Assembly (NCBI GenBank): GCA_017937135.1
Contig: JAGBEE010000042.1
Location: 11,885 to 75,884, forward strand
DNA length: 64,000 nucleotides
Source of the DNA: Clostridia bacterium
GTDB lineage: Bacteria > Bacillota > Clostridia > Oscillospirales > CAG-272
Reading direction: 5' to 3'
In this document: positions 5,276 through 21,446 of the stretch, in pieces
Layout: every line of letters begins with the position of its first letter
Numbering within the stretch: position 1 is the first letter of the stretch
Notes under the pieces: model-generated
Databases searched by the model: none
What the model was told of the DNA's origin: nothing
Seen by the model: the letters and a program-made list of their open reading frames with translations, nothing else
Program-made: the position numbers and the translations under genes

Positions 5276-5279
5276 TAAT

Positions 5280-5355: not shown

Positions 5356-5401
5356 CACAAACAAAAATCGAACACTTTCGGGTGTTCGATTTTTGTTTGT
5401 G
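5356..5401 (+). terminator. Terminator hairpin after the tRNAs
   Basis: 20-bp inverted repeat CACAAACAAAAATCGAACAC/GTGTTCGATTTTTGTTTGTG. Confidence 0.75.
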
Positions 5402-5402
5402 A

Positions 5403-5565
5403 ATGAAGCACACCTGCAGTGCATTAAGACACTTTGTTAATGAAGTCGGCTTCGCCTAATGAAGTCGCTTCGCTAATTATTTTGTGTGCTTCGCTTCATA
5501 CGAACGGAGTGAGTGCTTCATTGTTGCGTAGCAACTGCTTCATATTGACAAAGTCAATGCTTCAT
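5403..5565. repeat. Mirror array A: 4x ATGAAG-type then 4x GCTTCAT with hairpin spacers
   Basis: ATGAAG/ATTAAG at 5403, 5423, 5440, 5459; GCTTCAT at 5493, 5515, 5537, 5559 (22-bp period). Confidence 0.85.
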
Positions 5566-5580
5566 TAAAAGGAGTAATTT

Positions 5581-5928
5581 ATGAAAGACGATAAATTATC
5601 AATACAGTCTATGGATTTTGCTGTATCAATTATTGAGCTTGTAAAAAGCTTAAAGGAAAAGCGAGAGTCTATAATTTCAAATCAAATCGGCAGAAGCGGT
5701 ACAAGCATTGGTGCAAACATTCGTGAAGCTCAATATGCACACGGAAAAGCAGATTTTATCGCAAAGCTTCAAATTGCTCTTAAAGAAGCAAATGAAACAG
5801 GCTATTGGCTTGAATTACTTTTTAGAACAAATTATATTGATGAAAGTACATATAAGTCACTAAACAATGCTTGCACAAGCATTCGTGTAATGCTAATTTC
5901 CTCTATAAATACATCAAAGCAAGGCTGA
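5581..5928 (+). CDS. Four helix bundle protein (23S rRNA IVS protein / bAvd-like family)
   Basis: QIGRSGTSIGANIREA...DFIAKLQIALKEANETGYWLELL family signature; AAAGGAG RBS. Confidence 0.92.
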   Translation: MKDDKLSIQSMDFAVSIIELVKSLKEKRESIISNQIGRSGTSIGANIREAQYAHGKADFIAKLQIALKEANETGYWLELLFRTNYIDESTYKSLNNACTSIRVMLISSINTSKQG

Positions 5929-5946
5929 ATTTTCAACCTTGCTTTT
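5916..5946 (+). terminator. Terminator overlapping the four-helix-bundle stop codon
   Basis: AAAGCAAGGCTGAA-TT-TTCAACCTTGCTTTT. Confidence 0.65.
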
Positions 5947-6265
5947 CTAATATTTCTTTCGCTATTTTGGGGCTGGGTTCGCATTTTTGACCAAGACTGT
6001 TCTCTGCGTCAAGGGGTCCTCAAAACGAAGTATGAGTTTTGGGGTTCACGGGTTGCAAGGATGAGGTCGGGCAAAAATATTCTCTTTAAGAGGCTTTTTG
6101 AATAACACGTGACAAGCAATCTTTTTAAGGAAAGCAATCATTTAAAGACAACTCCTCGTTTATCTTTCTTCATCTAAACTTTTTAGCACGCAAATTTACG
6201 TGCTTTTTGTCAGATTTTCTGCACCAAAAGTATTATCAAAAATATAATAGTAACGGAGGTACATC

Positions 6266-7069
6266 ATGGATAATTTTGTTATAATGGCTTTAATAGCAAC
6301 ATTAGGAACATGGCTTGTTACCGCTTTAGGCGCAGCGTTGGTTGTATTTTTTAAGGCTCCTAATCCTAAAGGTCTAAATGTCATGCTTGGATTTGCCTCT
6401 GGTGTTATGATAGCTGCAAGCTTTTGGTCGCTTTTACAGCCTGCTATTGAGCGCGCAAGGGTGTCTTCAAATATACCTGCATATCTCGTAGCAACAATTG
6501 GCTTTTTGCTTGGCGCTTTATTCATTTGGATATCTGACAAGGCTGTTAATTTGGCAAGAAAAAAAGCAGATATTTCACAAGGGAAGGTCAATGAGCGATT
6601 GCACCGAATTGCAATGCTTGTTCTTTCAATCACACTCCACAATATACCAGAAGGATTAGCTGTAGGCGTTGCATTTGGTGCATTACAGGGTTCCGGATAT
6701 ACGCCAGAGAGCTTAATGGGAGCAATTTCAGTAGCTGTTGGTATCGGCTTGCAGAACTTTCCTGAGGGCGCGGCAGTTTCGGTGCCTCTTAGACGAGAAG
6801 GCTGTTCCAGAAAAAGAAGCTTTTTGCTTGGTCAAGCATCTGGCATGGTAGAGCCGATTGCAGGTGTTGTAGGTGCATTACTCGTTGTCTATGTTGAAGC
6901 AATTTTACCATTTGCCCTATCATTTGCTGCAGGAGCAATGATTTTAGTTGCTGTTCATGAGTTAATTCCAGAGTGCCAAAAAAACCAGAACGAGCAGCCT
7001 TATTTGGCTACTATGGGTATCATACTTGGTTTCGCCGTTATGATGCTATTGGATGTTATGTTAGGTTGA
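6266..7069 (+). CDS. ZIP family metal transporter (ZupT/GufA-like)
   Basis: HNIPEG and QNFPEG motifs, multiple transmembrane helices, GGAGGT RBS. Confidence 0.93.
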   Translation: MDNFVIMALIATLGTWLVTALGAALVVFFKAPNPKGLNVMLGFASGVMIAASFWSLLQPAIERARVSSNIPAYLVATIGFLLGALFIWISDKAVNLARKKADISQGKVNERLHRIAMLVLSITLHNIPEGLAVGVAFGALQGSGYTPESLMGAISVAVGIGLQNFPEGAAVSVPLRREGCSRKRSFLLGQASGMVEPIAGVVGALLVVYVEAILPFALSFAAGAMILVAVHELIPECQKNQNEQPYLATMGIILGFAVMMLLDVMLG

Positions 7070-7153
7070 GCTATTAAAGGGTTAACAGCATAGCATTTTA
7101 AAGTAAGGTCTTGTGCTTTATTTTTACGTAGGTTTTTTGGTTATAATATATAG

Positions 7154-7190
7154 AAAAGGGGCTGTCGCATTGAAGCGACGCCCCTTTTTT
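7154..7190. terminator. Bidirectional terminator / palindromic repeat
   Basis: AAAAGGGGCTGTCGC-loop-GCGACGCCCCTTTTTT. Confidence 0.7.
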
Positions 7191-7406
7191 GGAGGATAGT
7201 GAAATGTGCGCCCAAGGCGAGATTCGTACACGTAGGCGTACTTCGTACGGTAGAGTGCGAGGTCGCGCCTAAAAAATGAAGAGAGCTTGCAACAAAACCG
7301 CAAGCTCTCAACCTTTAAATTTCACTAAAATAATTGTTTATACTTAATTTCAAGAGGAAATGTGTCATTATTTGGTCTAAACTTATTGCAACATCCCCTT
7401 GCTATT

Positions 7407-8105
7407 TTATTTGTTTGCTTTTGCCGTGTCCTCGTTTTCGTCCTCGTCTTCGGTGCGATTTATTATCATATTAAAAAAATTTTTTATCATTGTTCTCTTT
7501 TTTACCTTTGGTGGACTTTCTTTTTTATAATTCTTTAATTGCTCATCTAAAAATTCCTTGCTTTCCTCGGACATATATTCGAGCTGCTCCTCGTCCTCGC
7601 CTTTTATCCTTTTGTAGAAATTATAAACCTTTAATGCACCCTGTGTGTCTGCTTTGATTCCATCTATTAGTAGTGACACGCGTTTTTTTACAAAAATATA
7701 CGCAAGCTCCAAGGCTACCTGTAAAATCCAGCCTATTATCATAAGTGCAACTATGATTAAGGAAATCAAATCGGCTTCCCTTGTGGAAATAAAAAGTGCG
7801 TAAATTGCTATGCCGAGCGAAACCGTTTTTGCTGAGAATTTTATAATTCTATATATTACTTTTACTTTCTTTTTAGTATCCTTGTCCTTCTTACTATCCT
7901 TGTTGTGTGTGACTATGTAAAAACCCAAATATGCTACTGATACTACTAATAAAACTATATTTACTATAAGATTGCCTGTTTTTGCAATTATCGAGTATAA
8001 CGGAAATATTATTGCTAATGCCTGTACTATTATTACAGCGATAAAGGCAACTCTTTTTATGTCGTCAACCATTTTGTTAAAGGCTGCTTTGGTATAATCA
8101 AACAT
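7407..8105 (-). CDS. Hypothetical membrane protein (about 4 TM helices)
   Basis: Hydrophobic segments and charged C-terminal tail; start moved to MFDYTK (8105) behind a purine-rich RBS. Confidence 0.7.
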   Translation of the reverse strand: MFDYTKAAFNKMVDDIKRVAFIAVIIVQALAIIFPLYSIIAKTGNLIVNIVLLVVSVAYLGFYIVTHNKDSKKDKDTKKKVKVIYRIIKFSAKTVSLGIAIYALFISTREADLISLIIVALMIIGWILQVALELAYIFVKKRVSLLIDGIKADTQGALKVYNFYKRIKGEDEEQLEYMSEESKEFLDEQLKNYKKESPPKVKKRTMIKNFFNMIINRTEDEDENEDTAKANK

Positions 8106-8181
8106 TTTAGGTATCCTTTCCTTTATATGTCGTATTTTGTCGTCTATTATTATTTTAGCATATAACAAGCTCAAAAGCAAC

Positions 8182-8210
8182 AAAAAAAGCCACAGGGTGT
8201 GGCTTTTTTT
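8182..8210 (-). terminator. Terminator after the thioesterase gene
   Basis: A7-GCCAC-loop-GTGGC-T7. Confidence 0.75.
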
Positions 8211-8211
8211 A

Positions 8212-8601
8212 CTATTTGTTCAATTTTGAATAGGTTTTTTGCGTGAATTTTTCTGCAAAAATTATAAATCTTTCGTGAGTGCCCTCTCCAATGAGTCCAG
8301 AGTCATCATATGCCTTTACACTAAATACAATGCGTCTGCCATCAACCTCTGTAACCTCAGCCTCAGCCCAAGCCCTCATACCAACAGGTGTTGCGCTTAG
8401 GTGCTTTACGTTCATTAAGGTTCCAACGGTGCTTTGTCCCTCATCAAGCTCGCTTGCAATACACTTGTAGGCGCATTCCTCCATTAAAGCTACCATTCGT
8501 GGTGTAGCCAAAACCTCAAGCTCGCCACTGCCAAAAACCCTTGCTGTATCATTTTTTGTAACAGTTATTTCAATTATATTTTTATTCCCCGTCGTTATCA
8601 T
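8212..8601 (-). CDS. Hot-dog fold thioesterase (FlK-like)
   Basis: GSG...VLATP..VALME, TVG....HL.ATPVG and G.G.HER motifs. Confidence 0.88.
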   Translation of the reverse strand: MITTGNKNIIEITVTKNDTARVFGSGELEVLATPRMVALMEECAYKCIASELDEGQSTVGTLMNVKHLSATPVGMRAWAEAEVTEVDGRRIVFSVKAYDDSGLIGEGTHERFIIFAEKFTQKTYSKLNK

Positions 8602-9202
8602 TTGTAATCTCCTGTTTCTTATATCTGTGCTTTACCATCATCTGTGATAAAAATGCAATTGCCTGAAGTGGAACACCTAAAATAAATATTTGCCAAAAGT
8701 TCTCTTGCGGTACGATAAAGAAAAGCATATGTAAATATACAGCCAATATAGTTGTCCACATTGTAAAGGAAACTAAAATAAATTTTACTATCCAATTAAA
8801 CAAGGATCTACCAGATATGCACACAACCGCGGATGTTAATGGCAATGCCCACATAAATACAATCCAAAAATCAGGTCTGTATAAAAATAAAATAACAGCA
8901 AAAAGCATAATTACCGCGCCAGAAAGCGCGCACATCCATATTCTATATAGCTTAGCGTACTTTGCGCTCTCGTCAATCTTTTCTGCCTCGCACTCCTCAC
9001 CAACAAGGTCATTCATAGTGATACCATAAAATTGGCAAATATCATAAAGCACGTTAAGGTCGGGCAAGGTATCTCCCTTTTCCCAACGAGAAATTGCTTT
9101 GTCGGAGTAATTTAATTTTTCAGCAAGCTCAGCCTGTGTAAGCCCTCGCTGCTTTCGTAATGCGCCGAGATTTTTCGACACAATTGACTTAACATCCTTC
9201 AT
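8582..9202 (-). CDS. XRE-family HTH regulator with C-terminal membrane domain
   Basis: LTQAELAEKLNYSDKAISRWEKG HTH followed by about 4 TM segments. Confidence 0.88.
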   Translation of the reverse strand: MKDVKSIVSKNLGALRKQRGLTQAELAEKLNYSDKAISRWEKGDTLPDLNVLYDICQFYGITMNDLVGEECEAEKIDESAKYAKLYRIWMCALSGAVIMLFAVILFLYRPDFWIVFMWALPLTSAVVCISGRSLFNWIVKFILVSFTMWTTILAVYLHMLFFIVPQENFWQIFILGVPLQAIAFLSQMMVKHRYKKQEITNDNDGE

Positions 9203-9513
9203 AAAGCCTCCTAATCAAAAATATGCGACTAAGTGTCGATAATTTTATTTTCAGTTATCTTTTATGTTTTATTGTTTTATATATTATACTATATTCATAA
9301 GCGAAAATCAAGGGTTTTTTCGCCAATTCTACAATTTGTAGAGTGAAATTCTACTATTTTAAGAATTAAGATTTTTATTTTTAGAATTAAATTTTAAATA
9401 TGTCCTGTACTTTTTAATGCTTTTTTGATATTATTCAATTAAAGATGACGTATTTTGTTGTCTGTATTTCAGCCTTTTTGGCTGCATTTAATGCTTTTGG
9501 AGGTGAATCCTTT

Positions 9514-10323
9514 TTGGCGAAGAAAAAAGAGCCGATATATTATAAGGACGAGTATTCAGACGTTGTCCCTGCTCTTTCCAAGGAGCCTATCGTCATTGAC
9601 GAGAATTATAAATATTATCACACCTCGTTTATAAAAAAGCTAACACACTTTTTTTGGCTGAGAATTGTTTTCACACCGATTGCGTTTTTGTATTCAAAAA
9701 TTGCACATCACCACAAAATCGTGAACAAGAAGCTACTAAAAAATTTCAAGCACACAGGCTACTTTATGTATGCTAACCATACTCAAGAAATCGGCGATGC
9801 ATTTATGCCACATTTTTTGAACTTTCCAAAAGAGGACTTTTTTATAATTCACCCTGACAATTTAGCTCTTCCCTTTCTTGGAAGGCTACTTCCTACGCTT
9901 GGCGGTATTCCATTGCCAAGTAACGCTAAGGCGTTTAAAAATTTCAATGATGTTATTGAAAAGCGCATAAGGGAAAGAAAATGCGTTATTGTATATCCCG
10001 AGGCGCACGTTTGGCCATATTACACGGGGATAAGACCCTTTAATGACACATCGTTTGCTTATCCACTTAAATATGATGTACCAACCTTCTGCTTTACTAA
10101 CACTTATCAAAAAAGAAGATTTTCTAAAAAACCGAAAATCGTCACCTATATCGATGGTCCATTCTATGCTAACCCGGATTTAAGTCCTAAGGAGCAAAGA
10201 AGACATCTTCAAGAGCAGGTTTATGAATGTATGTGTGAGCGTAGCAAAAATAGCAGCGTCACCTTCATTGAATATATAAAATCAAATGGCGAAAACGCAC
10301 AAAAGGAGGAAAACGAGCAATAG
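9514..10323 (+). CDS. PlsC-like lysophospholipid acyltransferase
   Basis: NHxxxxxD (NHTQEIGD) and YPEAH motifs; probable TTG start at 9514 after GGAGGTG. Confidence 0.8.
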   Translation: MAKKKEPIYYKDEYSDVVPALSKEPIVIDENYKYYHTSFIKKLTHFFWLRIVFTPIAFLYSKIAHHHKIVNKKLLKNFKHTGYFMYANHTQEIGDAFMPHFLNFPKEDFFIIHPDNLALPFLGRLLPTLGGIPLPSNAKAFKNFNDVIEKRIRERKCVIVYPEAHVWPYYTGIRPFNDTSFAYPLKYDVPTFCFTNTYQKRRFSKKPKIVTYIDGPFYANPDLSPKEQRRHLQEQVYECMCERSKNSSVTFIEYIKSNGENAQKEENEQ

Positions 10324-10477
10324 AACATTTAAAACGCAATAGAATATTATAGCACGACTTAGTGCTTTATGTGGTTTTCCACTTTACATACATAATGGCT
10401 TTTACGGGCACATTATGTCCAGTAGATATATGACATACAACACTTGGTGTTGATATTTTTTGAAAGAGAGATTTATA

Positions 10478-11416
10478 ATGAACCGAAATATTATTCCCGT
10501 ATTTTTTTCATGTGATGATAACTATATGCCCTTCTTATCCGTTGCTATCCGTTCACTTATAGACAACGCATCAAAGGACTATAGATATGAAATTTCAATT
10601 CTTAATTCAGGTCTTAAGGAAGAAAACAAGCAAAGGATTTTGTCAATGCAGGACGAAAATCTTACTATAAAATTTATAGATGTAACAAGCAAGCTTTCAA
10701 GATTTGGCAAGCTTTTACACACAAGAGATTATTATACTATCGCAATTTATTTCCGCCTTTTCATTCCTGCTATGTTTCCAAAGTATAAAAAGGCTATTTA
10801 TCTCGACTCGGATATAGTTGTTCTTGATGATATTTCAAAGCTCTACTTTACCGAGCTTGATAATAATTTATTGGCAGGCGTTAGTGACGATGTTATTGCT
10901 TCTCGTCCTGACTTTATTGATTATGCTGAAAAGGGCGTTGGCATTAAGCACGAGAAGTATTTTAATTCCGGTATGCTTTTGATGAATCTTGACCTTATGA
11001 GAGAAATTGATATTGAGGAAAGATTTGCCGAGCTTTTAAACACATACCACTTCCCTACAGTTTGTCCAGACCAAGACTATCTTAATGTTATTTGTAAGGA
11101 TAGAGTGCTCTATCTTGACAAGGGCTGGAACAAGATGGCAATTAACAATAACTACGAAGGCAAGCCTATGGTTATCCACTTTAACAACTTTGCTAAGCCT
11201 TGGCAGCACGACGACGTTCATTATGGCGAATATTTTTGGGAATACGCCAACAAAACAGAATTTAAGGATATAATAAGAGAAATCAGAGAAAATTTCTCTG
11301 ATGAGGATATGCAAAAGCAAATTGAGGGTGCAGAAAATCTTGTAAAGAGTGTTGATGAAATAATTCACGATGAAAAGAACTTCTGCAATACCCTATTTGA
11401 TGGAGTTGTAGGATAA
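10478..11416 (+). CDS. Glycosyltransferase family 8
   Basis: DDNY, YLDSD, YFNSG, DQD and HF...KPW motifs. Confidence 0.92.
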   Translation: MNRNIIPVFFSCDDNYMPFLSVAIRSLIDNASKDYRYEISILNSGLKEENKQRILSMQDENLTIKFIDVTSKLSRFGKLLHTRDYYTIAIYFRLFIPAMFPKYKKAIYLDSDIVVLDDISKLYFTELDNNLLAGVSDDVIASRPDFIDYAEKGVGIKHEKYFNSGMLLMNLDLMREIDIEERFAELLNTYHFPTVCPDQDYLNVICKDRVLYLDKGWNKMAINNNYEGKPMVIHFNNFAKPWQHDDVHYGEYFWEYANKTEFKDIIREIRENFSDEDMQKQIEGAENLVKSVDEIIHDEKNFCNTLFDGVVG

Positions 11417-11417
11417 T

Positions 11418-12290
11418 ATGGATAACAAAAGCACCACTCTGTCCAAGGACAGATTAGATGTTATAAACAAAATTAAGGAATGCGAAAGGCTTGGACTTTT
11501 TAACGAGGACGTTGAACCAGACCCCCCGTCAAGAATGATAATGCCCAATGAAATTGACTACTTAAGAAAAAGGCCTCTTAGCAAAATTAAATCCTATTTT
11601 GCTTATAGAGGAGCAAAAAAATTTTTAAACAAGCTTGTAAAAAGCAAAAGCTTAATAGTCAAGGAATACAAGGGAGTTGAGCATTTTTCAGGCTTAGATT
11701 GTGGCGCTATTATTACGTGCAACCATTTTAACATTTGTGACTGCTTTGCTATGCATCTTTTGTACGAGCAAACAGGCTTTAAAATGAGAAAGCGTAAAAT
11801 ATATCGTGTAATAAGGGAAGGTAATTACACCTTGTTTGATGGACTTTTCGGACTTCTTATGCGGCACTTTTACACTCTTCCGCTTTCTTCTAATCTTCAA
11901 ACAATGAAGAAATTTAAGGAAAGCATAAAAATACTTTTAGAGCGTAAAAATTTCATTCTTGTTTACCCTGAGCAGTCAATGTGGTTTAACTATCGCAAGC
12001 CAAGACCATTAAAAATTGGCGCATTTATGTTTGCGGCACAAAATAATGCTCCTGTTTTACCCTGCTTTATAACAATGAGGGACACAGAAAACATCGGCGT
12101 TGACGGCGCATACATTCAAGAATATACCATTCACGTAAGAGAGCCAATTTATCCGGACCCAGAAAAAAATGCAAGAGAAAACGCACAATATATGATGGAT
12201 GAAAACTATCGTGTATGGAAGGAAATTTATGAGGAGGAATATGGTATTCCTCTTGTATATGATACCGAAAGCAAGCTCGACCCTCAGTAA
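11418..12290 (+). CDS. PlsC-like lysophospholipid acyltransferase
   Basis: NHFNICD and YPEQSMW motifs. Confidence 0.82.
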   Translation: MDNKSTTLSKDRLDVINKIKECERLGLFNEDVEPDPPSRMIMPNEIDYLRKRPLSKIKSYFAYRGAKKFLNKLVKSKSLIVKEYKGVEHFSGLDCGAIITCNHFNICDCFAMHLLYEQTGFKMRKRKIYRVIREGNYTLFDGLFGLLMRHFYTLPLSSNLQTMKKFKESIKILLERKNFILVYPEQSMWFNYRKPRPLKIGAFMFAAQNNAPVLPCFITMRDTENIGVDGAYIQEYTIHVREPIYPDPEKNARENAQYMMDENYRVWKEIYEEEYGIPLVYDTESKLDPQ

Positions 12291-12312
12291 GGTGCTGAGG
12301 TGTTACCTACGT

Positions 12313-12350
12313 AAAAAGGCTGTTGCAAAATGCAACAGCCTTATTTTTTT
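12313..12350. terminator. Bidirectional terminator
   Basis: AAGGCTGTTGCA-AAA-TGCAACAGCCTT flanked by A/T tracts, between convergent genes. Confidence 0.75.
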
Positions 12351-13143
12351 ATAATATTTCTTTTAATGACCTTATATAAGGATAGGATTTATTCTCAAGC
12401 ATTTTGTAAACAGCCACAAGTCCACAATCAATGCTATCAACATTATGAGTGTCGGAATTTACTACAAATGGCTTTCTTGATTTTGCAATTCTATCAATTA
12501 TATAGTTTTCGGGATATGCCTCTGTGCGATAGCCACGTGAAATAGCACCTGTGTTAATTTCAAAAATGGCAGGAGTTAATAAAAGCTCGCTAAGTGCATC
12601 GCTTACTGCTTTTTTGTATCTATCACAGCTTGTATCAATCATCGGAAGCACTTCATTAAACTTGGTTACAACGTCAAAATGGCCTATTATTTGACATTTT
12701 GTCTTGTTGTAGATATCCTTTACCAGCTTGTAATAGTCCTCACAATATGAATACACGTCGCCATTATACTCATCCTCAACGAATTTCTTCATCTCCTCAG
12801 CACTTGTATCAACGGATAGATATTTTCCGTTTTTATATACATAGTGAACGGAGCCTATTACATAATCATAGCCCTTTGTTGAGGTGGTTGAAAAATAATC
12901 CTGCTCAATGCCTACATAGATTTTTATTTTGTCCTTATATTTTTCTCTTAAGTCAAAAATTGTTTTCTTGTAAAGCTCAATTTCTTCCATTTTCATCGTC
13001 CACGAGCAGTCAAAATCTAACGGAGAGTGTCCAGAAAAGCCTATTTCACTTAGTCCCTTTTCTATCGCAGAGACAACCATTTCCTCGGCTGTATTCTTGC
13101 CGTCGCAAAAGGTTGTATGTGTATGATAATTAGTTATAATCAT
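12349..13143 (-). CDS. hisJ: Histidinol-phosphatase, PHP family
   Basis: HTHT.FCDG, GSVH, GHFD and SDTH PHP motifs; last gene of the his operon. Confidence 0.88.
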
Positions 13144-13790
13144 TTTGTCATTTTTTCCTGCTTAACCTTGTGGTCTATTACGTGGCGAGAAGCAAGCTCC
13201 TTTTGAATATCCTCAACGCTAATGCCCATTTCTACCATCAAAACCATTACGTGATATGCAAGGTCAGCTATTTCGTAAATTGTTTCCTTTTTGTCGTTTG
13301 CCTTGCCTGCGATAATAACCTCAGTGGATTCCTCGCCTACCTTTTTAAGAATTTTGTCAATTCCCTTTTCAAAAAGGTACGTTGTATATGAGCCCTCTGG
13401 CTTATCCTTCTTTCTGCCAACTAAGAGGTCATATAGCCCTTCTATATTAAATTCGTGTCTTTCGTCACTTTTCCATACATCGTTTGTAAAGCAGGTATCT
13501 GTACCTGTATGACAGGCAGGACCGTCTTTTTCTACAACTACGGTCAATGCGTCCATATCACAGTCGGCAGTTATTGAAACAATATGCTGATAGTTGCCAC
13601 TTGTTTCACCCTTTAACCATAGCTCTTTTCTTGAACGGCTATAGAAGCACGTAAGTCCCTTTTCCATTGAAATTTCAAGGCTCTGCTTGTTCATATAAGC
13701 AACGGTTAAAACCTTTTTTGAGAAGGCATCAACTACTACTGCAGGAATTAGTCCATTTTCATCAAATTTAAGCTTTTCTATATCTATCAT
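13140..13790 (-). CDS. hisIE: Bifunctional PR-AMP cyclohydrolase / PR-ATP pyrophosphatase
   Basis: [18 protein letters not shown]; KKVGEE and EIADLAYH. Confidence 0.96.
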
Positions 13791-13792
13791 AA

Positions 13793-14551
13793 TTATATCC
13801 TCACCTTTATACCATTTTGCGATAGCTCCCTTTTAAGCTCGCTGATTTTTATTTCACCAAAGTGGAAAACTGATGCCGCAAGACCTGCGTCAATATCGGG
13901 AATTTCTTTAAATAAATCAATAAAGTGGCTAACCTTGCCTGCCCCTCCTGATGCAATAACCGGAACCTTTACAACCTCGCACACAAGCTTTAAAAGCTCT
14001 ATGTCAAAGCCATTCTTTACTCCGTCTGTATCTATGGAGTTTACTACTATTTCACCAGCGCCAAGCTCAACGCCCTGCTTTATCCAAGAAATTGCTTCCT
14101 TGCCTGTGTCATATCTGCCACCAGCTGAAAATACTCTAAATTCACCATCTACTCTTTTTATATCAGCAGAAAGCACAACGCATTGTGAGCCATAGCGCTT
14201 AGCTGCCTCATACATAAGATTTGGATTTTTTATTGCGCCTGTATTTACGCTAACCTTGTCTGCGCCACATTTTAAAACTCTGTCAAAGTCCTCTAAGGTA
14301 TTTATACCTCCACCAACGGTAAGCGGAATAAACACATTTTGGGCTACCTTTGTTAAAATGTCGGTAAAGAGCTTTCTTTCCTCGCAGGAGGCTGTTATAT
14401 CATAAAAAACAAGCTCGTCTGCTCCGTTTGCCGAGTAATAGCTCGCAAGCTCGATGGGTGATGAAACATCGTTCAAGCCCTCAAAATTAACACCCTTTAC
14501 TACTCTGCCATTCTTTACATCGAGGCAGGGTATTATTCTTTTTGTTATCAT
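13793..14551 (-). CDS. hisF: Imidazole glycerol phosphate synthase cyclase subunit
   Basis: [30 protein letters not shown]. Confidence 0.97.
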
Positions 14552-15261
14552 TTTGCCACCTCGATAGCTTCCTTTAAATCAATTGCGCCTGTGTAGTACG
14601 CCTTGCCAATAATTGCACCATAGATATTCATTCCTCTTAGAGCCTTTATATCGTCAATCGTTGACACTCCACCAGAGGCAACTATATCAAGTGAGTATTT
14701 CTGACTAAGAGCCTTGTATAATTCAAGGTTAGTACCCTTCATTGCTCCGTCCTTGGAAATATCGGTGCAAATTACTGTTTTTACGCCTAACATCTGCATC
14801 TTTGATAGAAATTCCTCTAATGAATATTGGCTTTTTTCTATCCAACCCTTAATTGCAATATAGCCATCCTTTACGTCTGCGCCTACTGCAATTTTTTCGC
14901 CATACAATGAAAGCGCTTCCTTTAAAAATTCCTCGTTTGTTACTGCGCTTGTGCCAAGAATAACACGATTTGCTCCATTTTCAAGGTATTTTTTAACTGT
15001 TTGAATATCGCGTATTCCTCCACCTATTTCTAAAAACAGGCTTGTTTCCTCAGCGATTTTTTTAACTATTTCTATGTTTGGAGTTGTGCCAAGCCTTGCG
15101 CCCTCTAAATCAACCACGTGAATGTATTTTGCGCCTTGCTTTTCAAAGCTTATAGCCACCTCCCAGGGCTTTTCACTATAAACAGTCATTTGATTATAGT
15201 CACCCTTGAAAAGACGAACTGCCTTTTTGTCATACAAATCTATTGCAGGAAATATCTTCAT
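14548..15261 (-). CDS. hisA: ProFAR isomerase
   Basis: IFPAIDL, HVVDLEGA, GGGIR, TDISKDG. Confidence 0.96.
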   Translation of the reverse strand: MKIFPAIDLYDKKAVRLFKGDYNQMTVYSEKPWEVAISFEKQGAKYIHVVDLEGARLGTTPNIEIVKKIAEETSLFLEIGGGIRDIQTVKKYLENGANRVILGTSAVTNEEFLKEALSLYGEKIAVGADVKDGYIAIKGWIEKSQYSLEEFLSKMQMLGVKTVICTDISKDGAMKGTNLELYKALSQKYSLDIVASGGVSTIDDIKALRGMNIYGAIIGKAYYTGAIDLKEAIEVAK

Positions 15262-15264
15262 TTA

Positions 15265-15876
15265 TTACTCCATTTCGCAAAATGCTCTTAAGATATTAAG
15301 TCCAACCTCTCCACTCTTTTCGGGGTGGAATTGGCAACCCATTACATTGTCCTTGCCTACAATTGCAGGAAGCTCCTTGTCATATTCACAGCTTGCAATA
15401 AGTGACTCCTCACAGTTGCTTGCAAAATATGAGTGAACAAAATAAACAAAGTCACCATTTTTTATATATTTTAAAAGTGGACTTTCCTTTTTGAAAATCA
15501 AAGCATTGTAGCCTATGTGTGGAATTTTAAGCTCACTATTTATTACGCCATTCATTCCTACAACCTCGCCCTTTAAAAGGCCAAGACCTGTGTGCTCTCC
15601 AAACTCATAGCTCTTTTCAAAAAGCATTTGCATTCCAAGACAAATACCCATTATTTTTTTGCCTTTTTTTGCCTCGTCTATTATTACTCTATCAAGTCCT
15701 GTAGCCCTTAACTTTGCTATTGCATCCTCAAAAGCGCCAACACCCGGAAGGATAATTTTGTCGCATTTTCTAATAGTATCCTCATCAGAGGTTACTATTG
15801 CATCTACGCCTATATATTTAAGTGATGATACTACGGAAAAAAGATTTCCTACACCGTAGTCAACTATTGCTATCAT
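15265..15876 (-). CDS. hisH: Imidazole glycerol phosphate synthase glutaminase subunit
   Basis: PGVGAF, GICLGMQ, FVHSY, QFHPEKS. Confidence 0.97.
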   Translation of the reverse strand: MIAIVDYGVGNLFSVVSSLKYIGVDAIVTSDEDTIRKCDKIILPGVGAFEDAIAKLRATGLDRVIIDEAKKGKKIMGICLGMQMLFEKSYEFGEHTGLGLLKGEVVGMNGVINSELKIPHIGYNALIFKKESPLLKYIKNGDFVYFVHSYFASNCEESLIASCEYDKELPAIVGKDNVMGCQFHPEKSGEVGLNILRAFCEME

Positions 15877-16463
15877 TAGATTACTCCTTTTGTTGAAGGA
15901 ACTTCGTCTTTATATTTTTCATCTATTTCGCACGCTTCCTTAAGACATCTTGCAAGTGCCTTGAAGATACCCTCTATTATGTGGTGCGAATTTACTCCTG
16001 CAAGCTCTCTTATGTGCGTTGTAATTCCACTTTCTCTTGCAAAGGCGCACAAAAACTCCTCGCAAAGCTCGGTGTCAAAATCACCAACCTTAGATGCAGG
16101 AATATCAAGCTTAGTATATAAACCACCTCTGCCAGAGATGTCAACTGCACACATAATAAGCGCCTCATCCATTGGCAAAATTACGTCGGCATATCTCTTA
16201 ATGCCCTTCTTTTCTCCAAGCGCATCCTTTATTGCCTTGCCAAGACAAATAGCAATATCCTCTGCTGTGTGGTGGTAATCTACATTTGTATCTCCCTTGC
16301 AAAATACATCAAGGTCAAAGCGAGAATGCTTTGCAAAAAGAGTTAGCATATGGTCAAGGAAGCCACAGCCTGTGTCTATATTTCCCTTGCCTGTACCGTC
16401 AAGGCTCACCAAAAGCTTAATGTCAGTTTCATTCGTTTTTCTTATAATTTCAGCGTTTCTCAT
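15876..16463 (-). CDS. hisB: Imidazoleglycerol-phosphate dehydratase
   Basis: FLDHML, HHTAED, PMDE, NSHHIIE. Confidence 0.97.
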   Translation of the reverse strand: MRNAEIIRKTNETDIKLLVSLDGTGKGNIDTGCGFLDHMLTLFAKHSRFDLDVFCKGDTNVDYHHTAEDIAICLGKAIKDALGEKKGIKRYADVILPMDEALIMCAVDISGRGGLYTKLDIPASKVGDFDTELCEEFLCAFARESGITTHIRELAGVNSHHIIEGIFKALARCLKEACEIDEKYKDEVPSTKGVI

Positions 16464-17524
16464 TTTATTTCCTCCAAAATGGAAATTACTTTTTTAATTA
16501 AGATATCCATTTGCTCCCTTGTGCCAATGGTTATACGGTTGTAGTCCTTTATTTTGTCCTTGGTAAAGTGACGCACCAAAACGCCATTTTCCTTGAGCCT
16601 TTTATAAAGATGCTCCCCTTGTATTTTATCGTGCTTTGCAAAGATAAAATTCGCCTTGGATTCAAGAATATCAAAGCCTATTTTTTTAAGCTCGGCTACT
16701 GTATATTCTCTTGTTTTTATTATTTCCTTACAGTTGTCCATATAGTATTTATTGTCATCTATTGCCACAGCTCCTGCTATTTGGCTAAGACGATTTACGT
16801 TATATGGATTTGTTGAATATTTTATAGTGTTTAAGTCATTTATAAGAGCCTTGTTGCCTATGCCGAAGCCTATTCTGCCTCCTGCCATAGAGCGTGATTT
16901 TGAAAATGTCATCGTAACTAAAAGGTTATCATATTTTTTAGTTAAGCCCACTGCGCTTTGCCCACCGAAATCTATATATGCCTCATCAATTATTACGACA
17001 TTTTCGGGGTTCGATTTTGCGATTTTTTCAATTTCTTCAAGGCTAAGATATATTCCTGTTGGTGCGTTGGGGTTGGCTATTACTATATTTTCATTTATGC
17101 CTATGTAATCGTTTACATCAATTGTGAAATCGTCCTTTAGCGGAATTTCCCTATATTTGACGTTGTTTATTTTAGCAAAAACAGAATAAAAGCCATATGT
17201 TATATCGGGAAAAGCAATCCCTCTATCGCTATCGCAAAATGCCATAAAGGCAAAGTTCAAAACCTCATCCGAGCCATTTGTAACCAATACCTCGCTTTTA
17301 TCTACACCATATAAATCAGCTATTTTCTTGGTTAAAACGGAGCACTCGGGGTCTGAGTATAAATGGAGCCTTTCAGCCTCGCTTTTTACTGCATCGAAAA
17401 CACCCTTGCTTGGCAAATATGGCGATTCGTTAGTATTTAATTTTATATACTTCATATCCTTAGGCTGCTCGCCAGGCGTATATGGAACCAAGGTTGAATA
17501 TTTTTGGCTGAAAAATCTGCTCAT
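16460..17524 (-). CDS. hisC: Histidinol-phosphate aminotransferase
   Basis: KLNTNE, NGSDE, NPNAPTG, DEAY, TFSK. Confidence 0.96.
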   Translation of the reverse strand: MSRFFSQKYSTLVPYTPGEQPKDMKYIKLNTNESPYLPSKGVFDAVKSEAERLHLYSDPECSVLTKKIADLYGVDKSEVLVTNGSDEVLNFAFMAFCDSDRGIAFPDITYGFYSVFAKINNVKYREIPLKDDFTIDVNDYIGINENIVIANPNAPTGIYLSLEEIEKIAKSNPENVVIIDEAYIDFGGQSAVGLTKKYDNLLVTMTFSKSRSMAGGRIGFGIGNKALINDLNTIKYSTNPYNVNRLSQIAGAVAIDDNKYYMDNCKEIIKTREYTVAELKKIGFDILESKANFIFAKHDKIQGEHLYKRLKENGVLVRHFTKDKIKDYNRITIGTREQMDILIKKVISILEEIK

Positions 17525-17539
17525 TTTTACTCCTTGTTT

Positions 17540-18817
17540 TTATTCTTCAAATCTTATTGTTGCGCTCTTTGCGTGTGCGTGTAGGCCTTCCTTATCAGCA
17601 AATTTCGCAATCTTATCATATACCTTATTAAGTGCGTCCTTGGTGTAATAGGTAAACTGTGATTTCTTTACAAAATCGTCAACTGAAAGAGGTGATGAAA
17701 ACCTTGCGCTACCACTTGTCGGAAGGGTGTGGTTTGGTCCTGCAAAGTAGTCTCCAAGCGCCTCGGGACAATACTTACCCATAAATATTGAGCCTGCGTG
17801 CTTGATTTTGTCAAGATAATCAAATGGATTATCTACGCAAATTTCAAGGTGCTCTGGCGCTATTTCGTTTGCTATATCAATAGCTAAAAGCAAATTGTTT
17901 TCTGCTACTATGATTTTACCATTTTTATCTATTGAATATCTTGCAATTTCCTCTCTTGGAAGGAGTGGAATTTGTCTTTCAAGCTCGTCACTTACCTTTT
18001 TTGCAAATTCCATTGTGTCAGTTACTAAAACTGCGCTTGCCATTTTATCGTGCTCAGCCTGTGAAAGAAGGTCTGCTGCAACATATCTTTCATCACAGGT
18101 AGAGTCTGCTACTACTAAAATTTCGCTTGGACCTGCTATCATATCTATTGATACTCTGCCAAACACCTGCTTTTTAGCTTCGGCAACGTATGCGTTACCC
18201 GGTCCTACAATTTTATCGACCATAGGAATTGTTTGGGTTCCATATGCGAGTGCGCCTACTGCCTGTGCTCCACCAACCTTGAATATTCTATCAACGCCTG
18301 CGATTTTAGCGCTTGCCAAAATAGCAGGGTTAACCTTACCGTCCTTTGATGGTGGTGTTACCATTACAATTTCGTTACAGCCAGCAATTTTAGCAGGAAT
18401 ACTATCCATTAAAACAGTTGATGGGTATGCTGCTGTACCACCCGGAACGTAAAGTCCAACCCTTTCAATAGGTGTTACCTTTTGTCCTGTAACTACTCCG
18501 TCCTTTTCGCTTATTATAAAGCTGTTTCTTACCTGCTTTTTGTGGAAGGCTTCAATATTTTCCTTTGCTTCCTTAACTATTTCGATAAATTCCTTATCTA
18601 CAAGCTCGAAAGCCTCATCAATTTCTGCCTTGGTAACCTCTAAGCTGTCAAGCCTTACCTTATCGAATTTTTCTGCATACTCGTAAAGTGCCTTGTCGCC
18701 GTTTTTCTTTACGTTTTCAATAATGCCAGAAACGACCTCTTCAACGCCTGAGGCGATATTGTCACGTGCGAAAATCTCGCTATTTGAAACCTCGCCATAT
18801 TTATAAATCTTAATCAT
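17540..18817 (-). CDS. hisD: Histidinol dehydrogenase
   Basis: YVPGG, GPGN, AGPSE, QAEH, APEHL, GPNHTLPT. Confidence 0.97.
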   Translation of the reverse strand: MIKIYKYGEVSNSEIFARDNIASGVEEVVSGIIENVKKNGDKALYEYAEKFDKVRLDSLEVTKAEIDEAFELVDKEFIEIVKEAKENIEAFHKKQVRNSFIISEKDGVVTGQKVTPIERVGLYVPGGTAAYPSTVLMDSIPAKIAGCNEIVMVTPPSKDGKVNPAILASAKIAGVDRIFKVGGAQAVGALAYGTQTIPMVDKIVGPGNAYVAEAKKQVFGRVSIDMIAGPSEILVVADSTCDERYVAADLLSQAEHDKMASAVLVTDTMEFAKKVSDELERQIPLLPREEIARYSIDKNGKIIVAENNLLLAIDIANEIAPEHLEICVDNPFDYLDKIKHAGSIFMGKYCPEALGDYFAGPNHTLPTSGSARFSSPLSVDDFVKKSQFTYYTKDALNKVYDKIAKFADKEGLHAHAKSATIRFEE

Positions 18818-18818
18818 T

Positions 18819-19439
18819 TTATTTTACCTGTTCTTTTAAAAACGCTGTGATTTTTTCAATTTGCTCTGTTTTAAATTTGAAGCTTGCCTTATTGACAATC
18901 AGTCTTGCTGAAATAGGCACTATTTCTTCCTTTACCTCTAAGTCGTTTTCCTTTAAGGTTGTTCCTGTTTCAACAATATCGACAATTACGTCTGACAAAT
19001 CAAGAATGGGGGCAAGCTCTATTGAGCCATTTAATTTAATTATATCAATGTCACGACATTTGCCTGAATAGTATTTCTTTGCTATATTTGCAAATTTTGT
19101 GGCTACTCTTAGTGTTTTTGTGTTGTCGTCATAAAAGTCCTTCTTTGCGGCAACTGCCATTCTGCATTTACCTATATTCAAGTCAAGAAGCTCATAAACA
19201 TCTGGCATATATTCAAGCAAAATATCCTTGCCACATACGCCAATATCGGCAGCTCCTCTTTCTACGTATATTGATACGTCGGAGGGCTTTACCCAGAAAT
19301 AGCGAACTCCCTTTTCCTCGTTTTCAAAAATGAGCTTTCTGTTATTCTCTAAAATGGAAGGGCATTCATAGCCACAGTCTTGAAACATTTTATATACCTT
19401 TTCGCCAAGGCGACCCTTGGGTAGTGCTACGTTTATCAT
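18819..19439 (-). CDS. hisG: ATP phosphoribosyltransferase, short form
   Basis: ALPKGRL, ATKF, GSIELAP, DIVETGTTL. Confidence 0.96.
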   Translation of the reverse strand: MINVALPKGRLGEKVYKMFQDCGYECPSILENNRKLIFENEEKGVRYFWVKPSDVSIYVERGAADIGVCGKDILLEYMPDVYELLDLNIGKCRMAVAAKKDFYDDNTKTLRVATKFANIAKKYYSGKCRDIDIIKLNGSIELAPILDLSDVIVDIVETGTTLKENDLEVKEEIVPISARLIVNKASFKFKTEQIEKITAFLKEQVK

Positions 19440-20530
19440 TTTGCCTCCATATTTATTAGTTCTTTATATCTTAATTTTTTGGGAATTGATTTTTGCGCGC
19501 TAACGCTCTTTCCCTCGCTTATAAATGTATCAACCGCTTTTTGAACCTTGTTTAAATCGCTTTTGTCTGAATACAAAATAAGCATATCTACATCGTATTC
19601 CTTTTTGTCAAAGCATATTTTTTCTAAGAGATTTGTGTAAATAGCAAAGCCTACTCCGCTTGATGTCTTGCCCATTTTTTCAAGAAGCTTGTCGTATCTG
19701 CCACCAAAAAGCACGCTCTCAAATATGCCCTTTATAAATCCGTTGAATACTATTCCGTTATAGTAATTCATATCGTTTACTATTGAAAAGTCGATACGAA
19801 TATTGTCAAGGTCCTCTGTGCCCTCAAGCATTTTTATAAGCGACTTTAATTCATTTACTGCCAATTCAAGCTCATTATTAGCCTTGAAGCTATCAAGTCT
19901 TTCAAATACTGATTTTGGGCTACCATAAATGCCGACAAAGCTTGAAAGCATTTGCGCCTTTTCATCATCAACGCCATATTTTTGGCATATTGCGCTTATT
20001 TCGTGTGCGCTCTTCTTTTTTATACATTCAGCAATTTCACTCTTAAAATTATCATTTGCGCTTATGCTATTTAAAAGCGCAGACAATATTCCCATATGCG
20101 AAATCTCTAAAACATAGTCGCTTGAAACTGTATTTAAGGTCTTCATTGCAAGACAAAGCGTCTCGTACATATCGTATAGGTCAATATCACCTATACATTC
20201 AAGACCCATTTGCATAATTTCCTCAAATTCTCTTGTGTTTCCGGAAATTCTATATACATTTTCATTATAATATACCTTGTTTTTTATGCCCCTTGCATCG
20301 GATGCATTTTTAATAATTGACAAGGTTACGTCCGGCTTTAATGCAAGAAGCTTGCCATTTGTATCAGTGAAGGTTATTATACCGTCGCCAACTAAAAAAT
20401 CCTTGTTTTTTGCATATAGGTCATATTCCTCAAATTTATTCATCTTGTATGGAAGATAACCATACTTTGAATATAGTGAGCGTAATGCCACTATAATTTT
20501 TTCCTCACTCTTTAGGTATTTCTCTATCAT
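19436..20530 (-). CDS. hisZ: ATP phosphoribosyltransferase regulatory subunit
   Basis: HisRS-like: LKPDVT, YYNGIVF, GGRYD; adjacent to short hisG. Confidence 0.9.
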   Translation of the reverse strand: MIEKYLKSEEKIIVALRSLYSKYGYLPYKMNKFEEYDLYAKNKDFLVGDGIITFTDTNGKLLALKPDVTLSIIKNASDARGIKNKVYYNENVYRISGNTREFEEIMQMGLECIGDIDLYDMYETLCLAMKTLNTVSSDYVLEISHMGILSALLNSISANDNFKSEIAECIKKKSAHEISAICQKYGVDDEKAQMLSSFVGIYGSPKSVFERLDSFKANNELELAVNELKSLIKMLEGTEDLDNIRIDFSIVNDMNYYNGIVFNGFIKGIFESVLFGGRYDKLLEKMGKTSSGVGFAIYTNLLEKICFDKKEYDVDMLILYSDKSDLNKVQKAVDTFISEGKSVSAQKSIPKKLRYKELINMEAK

Positions 20531-20817
20531 TTCTTGCCCTCTAATCTATCAAGTATCATTGAATATCCACCGTTTCCATATTCAAGGCATCTATTAACTC
20601 GGCTAATTGTTGCTGTGCTCATGCCTGTTTCCTTTGTTATATCGGCATAGTTTGCGCCACTTCTTAGCATACTTGCTGCTTTAAGTCTTTGAGCTATTTC
20701 TAAAACCTCTTTTACTGTGCAGGCATCCTCGAAGAATTTATAGCACTCTTCTACTGAATTTAATGATAATATTGCTTCAAACAGCTTATCTACTGCTTCA
20801 TTATGCAATTTGTTCAT
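20527..20817 (-). CDS. yerC: YerC/YecD TrpR-like regulator (probable his operon repressor)
   Basis: ECYKFFEDACT..E...IAQR and STATISRV.RCL.YG motifs; first gene of the his operon. Confidence 0.88.
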   Translation of the reverse strand: MNKLHNEAVDKLFEAILSLNSVEECYKFFEDACTVKEVLEIAQRLKAASMLRSGANYADITKETGMSTATISRVNRCLEYGNGGYSMILDRLEGKK

Positions 20818-20860
20818 TTTATGCTCCTTTTTATCATTGGTAAAAAAATTTATGTTTTAA

Positions 20861-20908
20861 CGCTTTAGTGTACTAAAATATTATAATACTTTTATTTTAT
20901 ATTGTCAA
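20861..20908 (-). promoter_or_regulatory. his operon sigmaA promoter with adjacent palindromic operator
   Basis: Minus strand TTGACA (20908-20903)-17 bp-TATAAT (20885-20880), directly followed by TTTAGT-GT-ACTAAA. Confidence 0.8.
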
Positions 20909-20950
20909 TAGTTTATATTATATTTATGTAAGAAAAAACAGATGCACAAA

Positions 20951-21428
20951 TGCGTGTTATCCTTAACGGAGAACACGCAATGAATTGCAACCTTGCGGTT
21001 GCATGAATTGAAAGCTGTGCTTTCGTGAATTGCCTGCGGCATGAATTGTGCTTTACGGCACATTGGTTGCAATTCAATTCATGTGAGCGACGAATTGCAC
21101 AGCAATTCCGCGAGCAAATCATGGCGGAGCCAATTCATGATGCGTATGCATCAATTCATTCATAAAAACGAACAGAGCAAGAATAGAAGGAGGTTTATCC
21201 TTTCACTCTTGCTCTGTTAGTATAAAGTGATATTCTTTGCTGACGCAAAGAGTGATATTGTCGCACAGCGACAGTGATATTGAAGCCTTGTGGCTTCAGT
21301 GATATTCTATTCGCCCTAAACTTGCGTAGCAAATATAACTCGGCATAAGCCGAATATCACTGCGTAGCAATAGAACTCGCCAAAGGCGAATAGAGTTAGC
21401 GTGATACTCCGTTAAGAGTATCACGCTA
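20951..21428. repeat. Composite non-coding palindromic element: two mirror arrays, a central hairpin and related terminal hairpins in inverted orientation
   Basis: ATGAATTG-type x4 then CAATTCAT-type x4 (20980-21159); AGTGATATT x4 then AATATCACT-type x4 (21226-21397); end hairpins share CTTAACGGAG on opposite strands. Confidence 0.85.
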
Positions 21429-21446
21429 TTGTGCATCTGTTTTTAA

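Follow-up and report, generated by a model that had tools for sequence, protein, structure and literature searches.

Do short hairpins set in mirrored arrays along a bacterial chromosome act as RNA or as DNA? The question is raised by a 64,000-nt stretch of a Clostridia genome (the window; C35:11885-75884 of a genome of 1.85 Mb and 38% G+C, estimated to be 93.7% complete), which carries three such arrays, A1, A2 and A3. A1 lies directly upstream of a gene for a protein resembling Avd, an accessory protein of diversity-generating retroelements (DGRs); A2 and A3 lie together near the gene ridA (Table 1). All three share one grammar, in which a motif of 7-9 nt alternates three or four times with a short GC-rich hairpin and is then followed by its reverse complement; the 5' end of every forward motif is RTGAW, and the unit can be written as RTGAWnnn plus a short hairpin. 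A preliminary description of the window had noted that the hairpin loops are polarised by strand, and had proposed that each half of an array folds on a different DNA strand, as in paired element ends or a cruciform, rather than as one transcript. We find that the loop polarity is real, general and far beyond chance, and that the three arrays are copies of one modular, dyad-symmetric repeat family that is widespread in gut Clostridia. The explanation that we favour, tentatively and with a little less than even confidence, is a selfish dyad-symmetric cis-element of Avd-like cassettes, which would fold as single-stranded or cruciform DNA and display its motifs to a ring of the Avd-like protein.

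On the + strand, the loops of the left halves read TTC, TTC and one degenerate 7-nt loop in A1, TTGC, TGT, TGC and TTAC in A2, and TGAC, ACA and TTGT in A3. Those of the right halves read GGA, GTA and AAA in A1, ACA, GGA and GTAT in A2, and GTA, ATAA, GTA and AAA in A3. Eight of the 10 left-half loops begin with T, as against 0 of 10 in the right halves (Fisher's exact p ~7e-4 by our own calculation). The two left-half loops that do not are the ACA of A3, which the preliminary description had already singled out as an exception, and the degenerate loop of A1. The bias holds when loops are tabulated by half over many copies. A collection of every AGTGATATT motif chain in 224 loci yielded 334 unique hairpins from 162 loci, and on the AGTGATATT strand 166 of these loops are T..C, 3 are G..A and 165 are other. 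GC-rich hairpins of the same genome, used as background, have no such bias (114 T..C and 99 G..A among 1314). A smaller set of 74 unique A3-type copies, from the window's own genome and its relatives, has the same left/right split at every hairpin position; left position 3, for example, reads TTGC in 17, TTAC in 12 and TTC in 7 copies, and right position 1 reads GAA in 26, GTA in 19 and GCA in 7. Polarity is identical in 16 arrays of six motif classes located upstream of Avd-like genes, where the G..A loops sit in the gene-adjacent half on the sense strand of the gene.

The hairpins themselves were compared with what is known of DNA and RNA hairpins. On the strand bearing G..A, the loops take the form GNA or GNNA and, less often, AAA or ATA. 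Among the 334 array hairpins, loops of 3 nt (155) and 4 nt (137) together account for 292, and the closing pair is 5'C-G3' in 284, compared with 517/1314 (39%) in the background. Stems are mainly 4-6 bp long, 42 have only 2-3 bp, and some units are merely the 7-mer GCGNAGC. Stem sequences vary from copy to copy, yet pairing stays nearly all Watson-Crick: 51 of 1607 pairs depart from it (9 G·T, 18 A·C and 24 other mismatches), and in the second set of 16 arrays 320 of 324 pairs are Watson-Crick with 0 G·T and 0 A·C. In an RNA family this large, one strand should be rich in G-U pairs, and none of this was seen. The GNNA loops do not follow the RNA rule either; 47 obey GNRA and 38 of 85 do not (GTTA, GATA, GTCA and others). 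For DNA, d(GCGAAGC) has been reported to melt at 76.5 C versus 39 C for r(GCGAAAGC), GCGNAGC and GCGNNAGC represent the mini-hairpin consensus, GNNA variants such as GTTA are tolerated, and two CGGCGAAAGCCG units are bound poorly by single-stranded DNA-binding protein (PMC13037366). With 166 of 334 loops being G..A opposite the motif strand, of 3-4 nt, closed by C-G and carried on short GC stems, the array hairpins look more like this DNA mini-hairpin type than like RNA hairpins. Neither a one-strand GNRA or UUCG signature nor G-U enrichment was found when we looked for them, and the signs that the preliminary description had named as speaking against its view are thus absent.

Long-range pairing adds a second level of structure. 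In A3, TCTATTCGCC (21306-21315) pairs with GGCGAATAGA (21385-21394), and at the two variable positions of this helix 54 of 59 unique copies have Watson-Crick pairs, which occur in four combinations. A layout with one half shut by a long-range helix (the closed half) and one open half is common to A1, A3 and the ATGATG family introduced below. The 516 nt that contain A2 and A3 fold much better than shuffled sequence (z = -13 on the + strand and z = -17 on the - strand). Motifs recur with a period of 22 nt in the gene-proximal half of A1, and with a spacing that ranges from 16 to 25 nt in A2 and A3. One hairpin of A1 (5500-5514, AC-GA-AC-GGA-GT-GA-GT) has tandem G·A/A·G mismatches midway along its stem; they are kept in the relative L234 (ACGAGCGTAGCGAGT), which suggests a conserved sheared-GA motif. 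A nested pairing of the A3 halves motif to motif, as a ladder of four-way junctions, was considered and rejected, the forward and reverse variants (G/T versus C/A) being without covariation.

A3 also connects the arrays to a known motif. The Rfam family Gut-1 (RF01706) matches its left half at 42.6 bits (+ strand, 21225-21310) and its right half at 39.4 bits (- strand, 21328-21398), both under the 50-bit gathering threshold; related copies give 10 matches of 51-60.9 bits among 20 loci. Both A3 halves align to model positions 1-77, with the three hairpins spaced by a GUGAAAU-like heptamer that characterise Gut-1. Since Gut-1 matches the + strand on the left and the - strand on the right, the halves are mutually inverted modules, and the Rfam motif appears to be one half of a two-halved array. 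Gut-1 was described as a likely small RNA (sRNA), known just from human gut metagenomes and without a function (Weinberg et al. 2010, PMC2864571); the available part of that description makes no mention of a two-halved structure.

Copies of the A3 type number about 10 (at least 10) in the window's own genome, at 78-96% identity and some at contig ends, and a second copy of A2 is present at C33:67719-67881. A 6-mer periodicity scan detected further motif families there: at least 7 gene-less arrays of the ATGATG type with the motif AATGATGTT / AACATCATT, and one TATATCATC / GATGATATA array. Tandem Repeats Finder, run on the window, detected just a fragment of A1. An array of TGATTCCATA in one orientation, bordered by CCTCCCTCGTCAGATGGAGGC / GCCTCCATCTGACGAGG, was observed at five contig ends (Table 1) and is therefore a repeat that breaks assembly. 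A chimeric array at C24:2160-2400 has AATGATGT in its left half and TATGGAATC, the reverse of the TGATTCCATA family, in its right half, so halves of different motif classes can be joined. Given this chimera, and variants in A3 without nested covariation, we do not claim that the halves pair motif to motif. In the host's taxonomic family, 47 of the 151 genomes, representing 39 of the 97 genera, contain A3 matches. Among viral contigs, hairpin arrays were found in just 3 of the 80 loci examined, the remainder being chance matches or other repeats.

The gene downstream of A1 encodes a predicted four-helix bundle and is the sole PF05635 match in its genome; its start codon, preceded by a Shine-Dalgarno sequence, lies 15 nt past the last A1 motif. 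PF05635 includes the S23p open reading frames (ORFs) of 23S rRNA intervening sequences (IVSs), and its members resemble Avd of the DGRs (PMC10053308). Among solved structures, PDB 2RLD (E 3.5e-34), an entry with five chains, is the closest. A four-copy model of the protein assembled head to tail and scored 0.76 versus 0.33 for the best of 3 controls, a mark reached by 21 of 30 proteins solved as one-chain pairs and by none of the 23 solved as single chains. At least 94% of contacts recur between runs, with a partner pLDDT (predicted local distance difference test) of at least 89, a result that may reflect memory of solved homologues such as the 2RLD complex. PADLOC gave no match for this protein.

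Genes of the PF05635 type are present in 82 of 151 genomes of the host's family. Inspection of the flanks of the 30 best-scoring ones among relatives revealed a two-halved hairpin array directly upstream in 22, usually after a tRNA gene and a terminator, the order also seen at A1. Of the others, 1 is cut by a contig end and 7 (L226-L232) lie between inverted sets of plain heptamers, 4-8 in tandem on either side, as in (AATTAGC)n gene (GCTAATT)n or (GATACAA)n gene (TTGTATC)n; the gene of L231 appears to sit inside another reading frame. In many units, the last motif overlaps the -35 box of a TTGACA..TGnTATAAT promoter. Over these 30 genes, six motif classes track the N-terminal subtype of the protein: ATGAAGC goes with M..DKLS.QSMDFAV, AATGATG with MKENKLVELSME, GTGATG with MAESKLRELSMEFS, and GTGATATT with MS.SILR.K.K.FA. 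Seven A3 matches in relatives adjoin PF05635 genes. Some gene-less copies lack the ORF and keep the promoter and the sequence that follows the stop codon, as expected of deletion derivatives. The module CCCCAAAACTCATACTTCG, found 3' of the Avd-like gene of the window, also adjoins gene-less arrays on other contigs, giving a mosaic element. At L254 (G017:C33), a second, shorter AATGATG array with a promoter-like TATAAT lies downstream of the Avd-like gene, from which it follows that cassettes can be tandem. In the literature searched, where many subscription papers were absent, we found no published link of Gut-1-like arrays to PF05635 or to insertion in terminator loops.

The position of A2 and A3 bears on where such elements are inserted. 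In the window, 479 nt (20950-21428) separate the stem halves AAAAACAGATGCACAA and TTGTGCATCTGTTTTT of the ridA terminator, and two genomes of the same genus (G031 and G120) have an intact, empty terminator, with 113-146 nt between the trpR-like gene and ridA. This empty-site evidence concerns the A2/A3 locus, synteny being broken around the A1 unit and the C40 copy in same-genus genomes. A2 and A3, a gene-less pair arranged head to head about the central hairpin 21168-21221, are thus inserted in the apical loop of the ridA terminator. Nine of nine elements examined in the same genome are flanked by abutting, complementary stem halves of differing sequence, bordered by A-runs and T-runs. Their perfect matches are 16, 12, 10, 8, 7, 5, 11, 5 and 10 nt long; a control with mismatched flanks has a mean of 6.3 and a maximum of 10, and is weak since A/T runs are common to all flanks. 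Elements lie at the 3' end of a gene in 11 of 12 cases and between convergent genes in 6 of 12. They are about 330-420 nt long, their left end GGGTGATRTTCTTAGCGGAG resembles the inverted right tail palindrome, and solo tail palindromes are also found in terminator loops (C41:13041, C32:20381). Most junctions carry TA, which may belong to the element rather than to a duplication. A separate terminator-like hairpin, GGGGCTGTCGC...GCGACGCCCC-TTTTT, followed by a conserved module of about 65 nt (GTGCG..GTACACGTAGGCGTACTTCGTACGGTAGAGTGCGAGGTCGCGCC), was observed at 7160-7270 of the window and recurs at C17:330-430, adjoining an A3-type array.

Copies of A3 are up to 89-90% identical across genera, compared with 70-76% for the genes flanking A2 and A3 within the genus. 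Together with their multi-copy, non-coding nature in the same genome and the two empty sites, which fit the description of a miniature inverted-repeat transposable element (MITE), this suggests that the arrays act as components of an element that is mobile or selfish. As for enzymes, the window's own genome has no DDE_3 (IS630-type) or Y1_Tnp match that would identify the transposase of a related autonomous element, the gene-bearing relatives carrying the Avd-like gene; PF01797 (RAYT) and RVT_1 (reverse transcriptase) also gave 0 matches there. Six tyrosine recombinases are present, none linked to arrays. A weak IS110-type DEDD (RuvC-like) match of 30.2 bits was observed at C17:6918-7124 (- strand), where a 1477-aa open frame begins; an array (C17:9240-9520) lies about 2 kb away. 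Downstream of the gene-bearing units, no right-hand inverted repeat was detected.

Table 1. Positions of the arrays and adjoining features, in window coordinates unless a contig is named.
Feature	Position	Strand	Sequence or basis
Two tRNA genes 5' of A1	5200..5351	+	Rfam tRNA, 66.1 and 60.3 bits
Terminator-like hairpin of the tRNA genes, immediately 5' of A1	5363..5394	+	AAAAATCGAACAC...GTGTTCGATTTTT; sequence reading
A1	5403-5566		motif AATGAAG(C) / GCTTCAT(T)
A1 gene-distal half	5403..5492	+	AATGAAG at 5402, 5439, 5458; TTC-loop hairpins
A1 long-range helix closing the gene-distal half	5405-5413 / 5484-5492		GAAGCACAC / GTGTGCTTC; 9 nt, 100% complementary
A1 gene-proximal half	5493..5566	+	GCTTCAT at 5493, 5515, 5537, 5559; loops GGA, GTA, AAA
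Avd-like four-helix-bundle gene, 115 aa	5581..5928	+	PF05635 100.6 bits (cut-off 33.8); TIGR02436 111.1 bits (cut-off 24)
Module 3' of Avd-like gene	6013..6050	-	CCCCAAAACTCATACTTCG...; compared with copies on other contigs
trpR-like/his operon promoter	20880..20908	-	TTGACA-17-TATAAT; 12/12 matches to consensus; belongs to host, not element
ridA terminator stem, left half	20934..20949		AAAAACAGATGCACAA; 16-nt perfect complement abutting element ends
A2 tail palindrome	20950..20979	-	TGCGTGTTATCC-TTAAC-GGAGAACACGCA; 12-6-12; one of a family of such hairpins
A2	20980..21160	-	ATGAATTG x4 at 20980, 21003, 21025, 21041; CAATTCAT x4 at 21075, 21115, 21131, 21152
Long central hairpin between A2 and A3	21168..21221		24-nt arms, 83% complementary
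A3	21226-21398		motif AGTGATATT / AATATCACT
A3 open half	21226..21315	+	AGTGATATT at 21226, 21251, 21273, 21298; loops TGAC, ACA, TTGT; then TCTATTCGCC 21306-21315
A3 closed half	21318..21398	+	loops GTA, ATAA, GTA, AAA; motifs AATATAACT, AATATCACT, AATAGAACT; GGCGAATAGA 21385-21394
A3 tail palindrome	21397..21428	+	AGCGTGATACTC-CGTTAA-GAGTATCACGCT; 12-6-12; 13 nt, 100%
ridA terminator stem, right half	21429..21444		TTGTGCATCTGTTTTT; empty-site comparison and complementarity
TGATTCCATA arrays, own genome	C22:1-420, C3:35300-35693, C30:8000-8323, C25:1-400, C9:13780-14106		

The promoter at 20880-20908, a perfect one of the sigma-70 type, serves a trpR-like gene and an operon of the hisZGDCBHAFIE type (12349-20817).

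How could these pieces fit together? We propose that A1 would be the array of the one intact cassette of this genome, and A2 and A3 gene-less derivatives within the same repeat family. The hairpins may work as DNA, either in single strands or extruded from supercoiled duplex, with a C(GNA)G or C(GNNA)G loop capping each hairpin on the strand whose 5'->3' direction leads outward from the centre of the array. Since the capping loops sit on the outward-running strand, the two halves would be read on opposite strands. The hairpins could hold the repeated motifs as single-stranded sites for a cognate, ring-shaped oligomer of the Avd-like protein, and the complex of array and protein may help to propagate or maintain the cassette, in the way that an Avd-dependent reaction makes use of the DGR target hairpin.

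Of the earlier proposal that the halves fold on different DNA strands, the inverted modules, the G..A loops on opposite strands and the DNA-type hairpin statistics hold up, and folding as DNA is a proposed rather than an observed property. Paired element ends fit arrays that behave as parts of a mobile or selfish element; a cruciform is a conjecture. The denial of a single transcript goes further than the data allow in view of the transcription evidence and the covarying helix, even with no RNA-type pairing signature.

Several observations weigh against a DNA element that displays motifs to an Avd-like ring. Hairpins of 4-6 bp extrude poorly from duplex DNA. The same genome has at least 10 A3-type and 7 ATGATG-type gene-less arrays compared with one Avd-like gene of another motif class, so most copies have no cognate protein at hand, and the match between motif and protein subtype could stem from linkage alone. 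No transposase, reverse transcriptase or RAYT that would move the element was found in this genome, and the chimeric array and the lack of nested-register covariation between forward and reverse motifs of A3 count on the same side. Other points concern RNA. Contigs from RNA libraries (4 runs from 3 studies) cover the arrays at a summed depth of 80-950 versus 0-15 in most bins of the flanks (51 at most, in one run), a strong enrichment in data that carry neither strand, ends nor expression ranking and sum over organisms and copies; without strand or ends, they do not discriminate between an RNA and a DNA element. At the end of many distant copies is a terminator made of A-run, hairpin and T-run, and the covarying long-range helix (54 of 59) is typical of folded RNA, a feature that fits a folded single strand of either chemistry. 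It is possible, if less likely, that the element acts as RNA and folds as a rod. Transcription would start at a promoter facing away from the Avd-like gene, to give the Gut-1 sRNA, or would come from neighbouring genes with the element in their 3' untranslated regions. Such a rod would be like the terminal stem of those 23S rRNA IVSs that carry the same ORF; RNase III might cleave it, or its role might be to protect or terminate transcripts. In support of this, the curated description of Gut-1 is that of a likely sRNA (PMC2864571), and in the Coxiella IVS a terminal stem of 28 bp is the substrate of RNase III, with heptamer repeats located upstream of the S23p ORF (PMC4990558). Neighbouring genes, with elements at a gene's 3' end in 11 of 12 cases, read into them; the terminators of distant copies are shared with a convergent tRNA gene, and both strands fold well (z -13 and -17). 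Since convergent genes (6 of 12 elements) transcribe both strands, both RNAs would have to fold while keeping the host terminator working, which could account for stems with Watson-Crick pairs only and for mirrored halves. Against this stand the 9 G·T versus 18 A·C among 1607 pairs and the 0 of 324 in the second set, with no G-U enrichment, and the 38 of 85 GNNA loops that break the GNRA rule. Nearly half the hairpins are triloops and some have stems of 2-3 bp, which are weak as RNA (the melting of r(GCGAAAGC) at 39 C being an example; PMC13037366). A need for bidirectional terminators would not yield mirrored G..A loops, triloops or 2-bp stems, and an RNA gives no reason for a promoter-proximal half that bears the exact complement (U..C) of the stable loops. 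In addition, most gene-bearing units place the array between an upstream terminator and the gene's own promoter.

Two further explanations do without folded nucleic acid in a functional role. Double-stranded sites in two inverted sets, serving as operators or iterons for the Avd-like protein or another regulator with the hairpins as incidental spacers, would explain why the last motif overlaps the -35 box of a good promoter in many units, why the motif tracks the protein subtype, and why the period in A1 is 22 nt, about two helical turns. Yet spacer palindromes change and keep pairing, with only 51 of 1607 pairs non-Watson-Crick across 334 different hairpins, strand-specific loops and the C-G closing pair are meaningless for a duplex site, spacing in A2 and A3 varies from 16 to 25 nt, and gene-less arrays in terminators have no promoter to control; we regard such a duplex operator as very improbable. 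A palindromic repeat that is selfish or neutral and has no function, its stems and loop bias being by-products of copying (for example by template switching) and its link to the gene a matter of hitch-hiking, seems improbable to us as well. It would agree with the absence of any mobility enzyme found in this genome, with the mosaic architecture and the solo tail palindromes in terminator loops, and with the occurrence of chimeric arrays, but six motif classes in many genera keep to a very regular grammar, a loop polarity of 166 to 3 requires a directional cause, and the layout of closed and open halves is kept in A1, A3 and the ATGATG family.

A wider version of the favoured explanation, which we consider doubtful, is that these cassettes represent a class of selfish elements that land in hairpin tips (terminators, rRNA helices) without a classical transposase, by way of mini-hairpins displaying motifs to an Avd-like ring. 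If true, one mechanism would unite the orphan Gut-1 'RNA', the S23p-bearing rRNA IVSs and the DGR target hairpin. To our knowledge, the Gut-1 RNA motif, published in 2010, is still an orphan, and we know of no role for PF05635/S23p proteins outside DGRs. Tying the two together, and both to insertion at hairpin tips, would provide a testable context for each. The arrays could also illustrate, naturally and in many copies, how the d(C-GNA-G) mini-hairpin rule applies in bacterial chromosomes, and serve as a warning that some Rfam 'RNA' motifs may be elements at the DNA level. For assembly, the several copies at contig ends indicate that these repeats break metagenome-assembled genomes of gut Clostridia.

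Among known repeats, REP, BIME and REPIN sequences and the MITEs Correia and RUP are short, multi-copy, intergenic and palindromic, are often found at gene 3' ends and occur in inverted pairs, and the arrays are similar in all these respects. Unlike either group, they have no RAYT or IS630-type transposase in their own genome, and we know of no repeat of these kinds with the grammar of motif plus hairpin or with a link to an Avd-like gene. The arrays are a more closely defined form of kinds already known (Gut-1, S23p cassettes and mini-hairpin DNA), whose unification was not found in the literature searched.

DNA mini-hairpins have been described at sites of initiation on single-stranded DNA (the G4 origin, ssiA and N4 promoters; PMC13037366), and the consensus of loop and closing pair is shared with the arrays, which contain units such as GCGAAGC, CGGCGTAAGCCG and CGCCGAAGGCG. 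The described examples are single sites on phage or plasmid single strands (PMC13037366), whereas the arrays are chromosomal, multi-copy and without a known primase or polymerase partner. Gut-1 offers the three hairpins with GUGAAAU-like heptamers in gut Clostridia that recur in the A3 halves (PMC2864571). It was described as a stand-alone sRNA candidate (PMC2864571); here it is half of an inverted array and one motif class of several, and the arrays differ from it in being tied to an Avd-like gene and to terminator loops, with DNA-like loop and pair statistics.

The 23S rRNA IVSs of Coxiella and Leptospira share with the cassettes the ORF family and the short tandem repeats upstream (PMC4990558); in our set, a PF05635 ORF with tandem repeats just upstream is seen at A1 with ORF 5581-5928 and in 22 of 30 relatives. 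The Coxiella IVS is a selfish element of 428 nt with an S23p ORF, heptamers just upstream and terminal inverted repeats, which replaces the tetraloop of an rRNA helix (PMC4990558). The parallel with the cassettes is a close one: insertion at a hairpin tip and a selfish, horizontally spread nature are alike in both, and terminal inverted repeats may be as well, the left end of our elements resembling the inverted right tail palindrome. The host hairpin is an rRNA helix in the IVSs and an intrinsic terminator or a spacer downstream of tRNA genes here; no site described here is a helix of 23S rRNA. A further difference is that the repeats of the arrays are interleaved with mini-hairpins, that both halves usually lie on one side of the ORF and that gene-less copies are dispersed.

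DGRs provide another comparison for the protein. The genome of the window has no reverse transcriptase, and no pair of template and variable repeats (TR/VR) turned up, without an aimed search. The arrays also differ from a DGR target in having 6-8 hairpins and a repeated motif instead of one hairpin, and stems of 4-6 bp versus 7-10 bp (PMC3240598, PMC10053308). What both have in common is an Avd-family protein together with GC-rich hairpins of free stem sequence that carry a G..A loop on one strand (PMC3240598, PMC10053308). The Avd-dependent DGR reaction needs a GC-rich DNA hairpin or cruciform with a free stem sequence and a 4-nt 5'-GRNA loop on one strand (PMC3240598). T7 endonuclease I cuts this target in supercoiled DNA only, and the study raises the possibility that Brt or Avd touches the loop (PMC3240598). 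By analogy, the DGR target is a tested precedent for what we propose here, an Avd-family system that may read a strand-specific G..A loop on DNA (PMC3240598).

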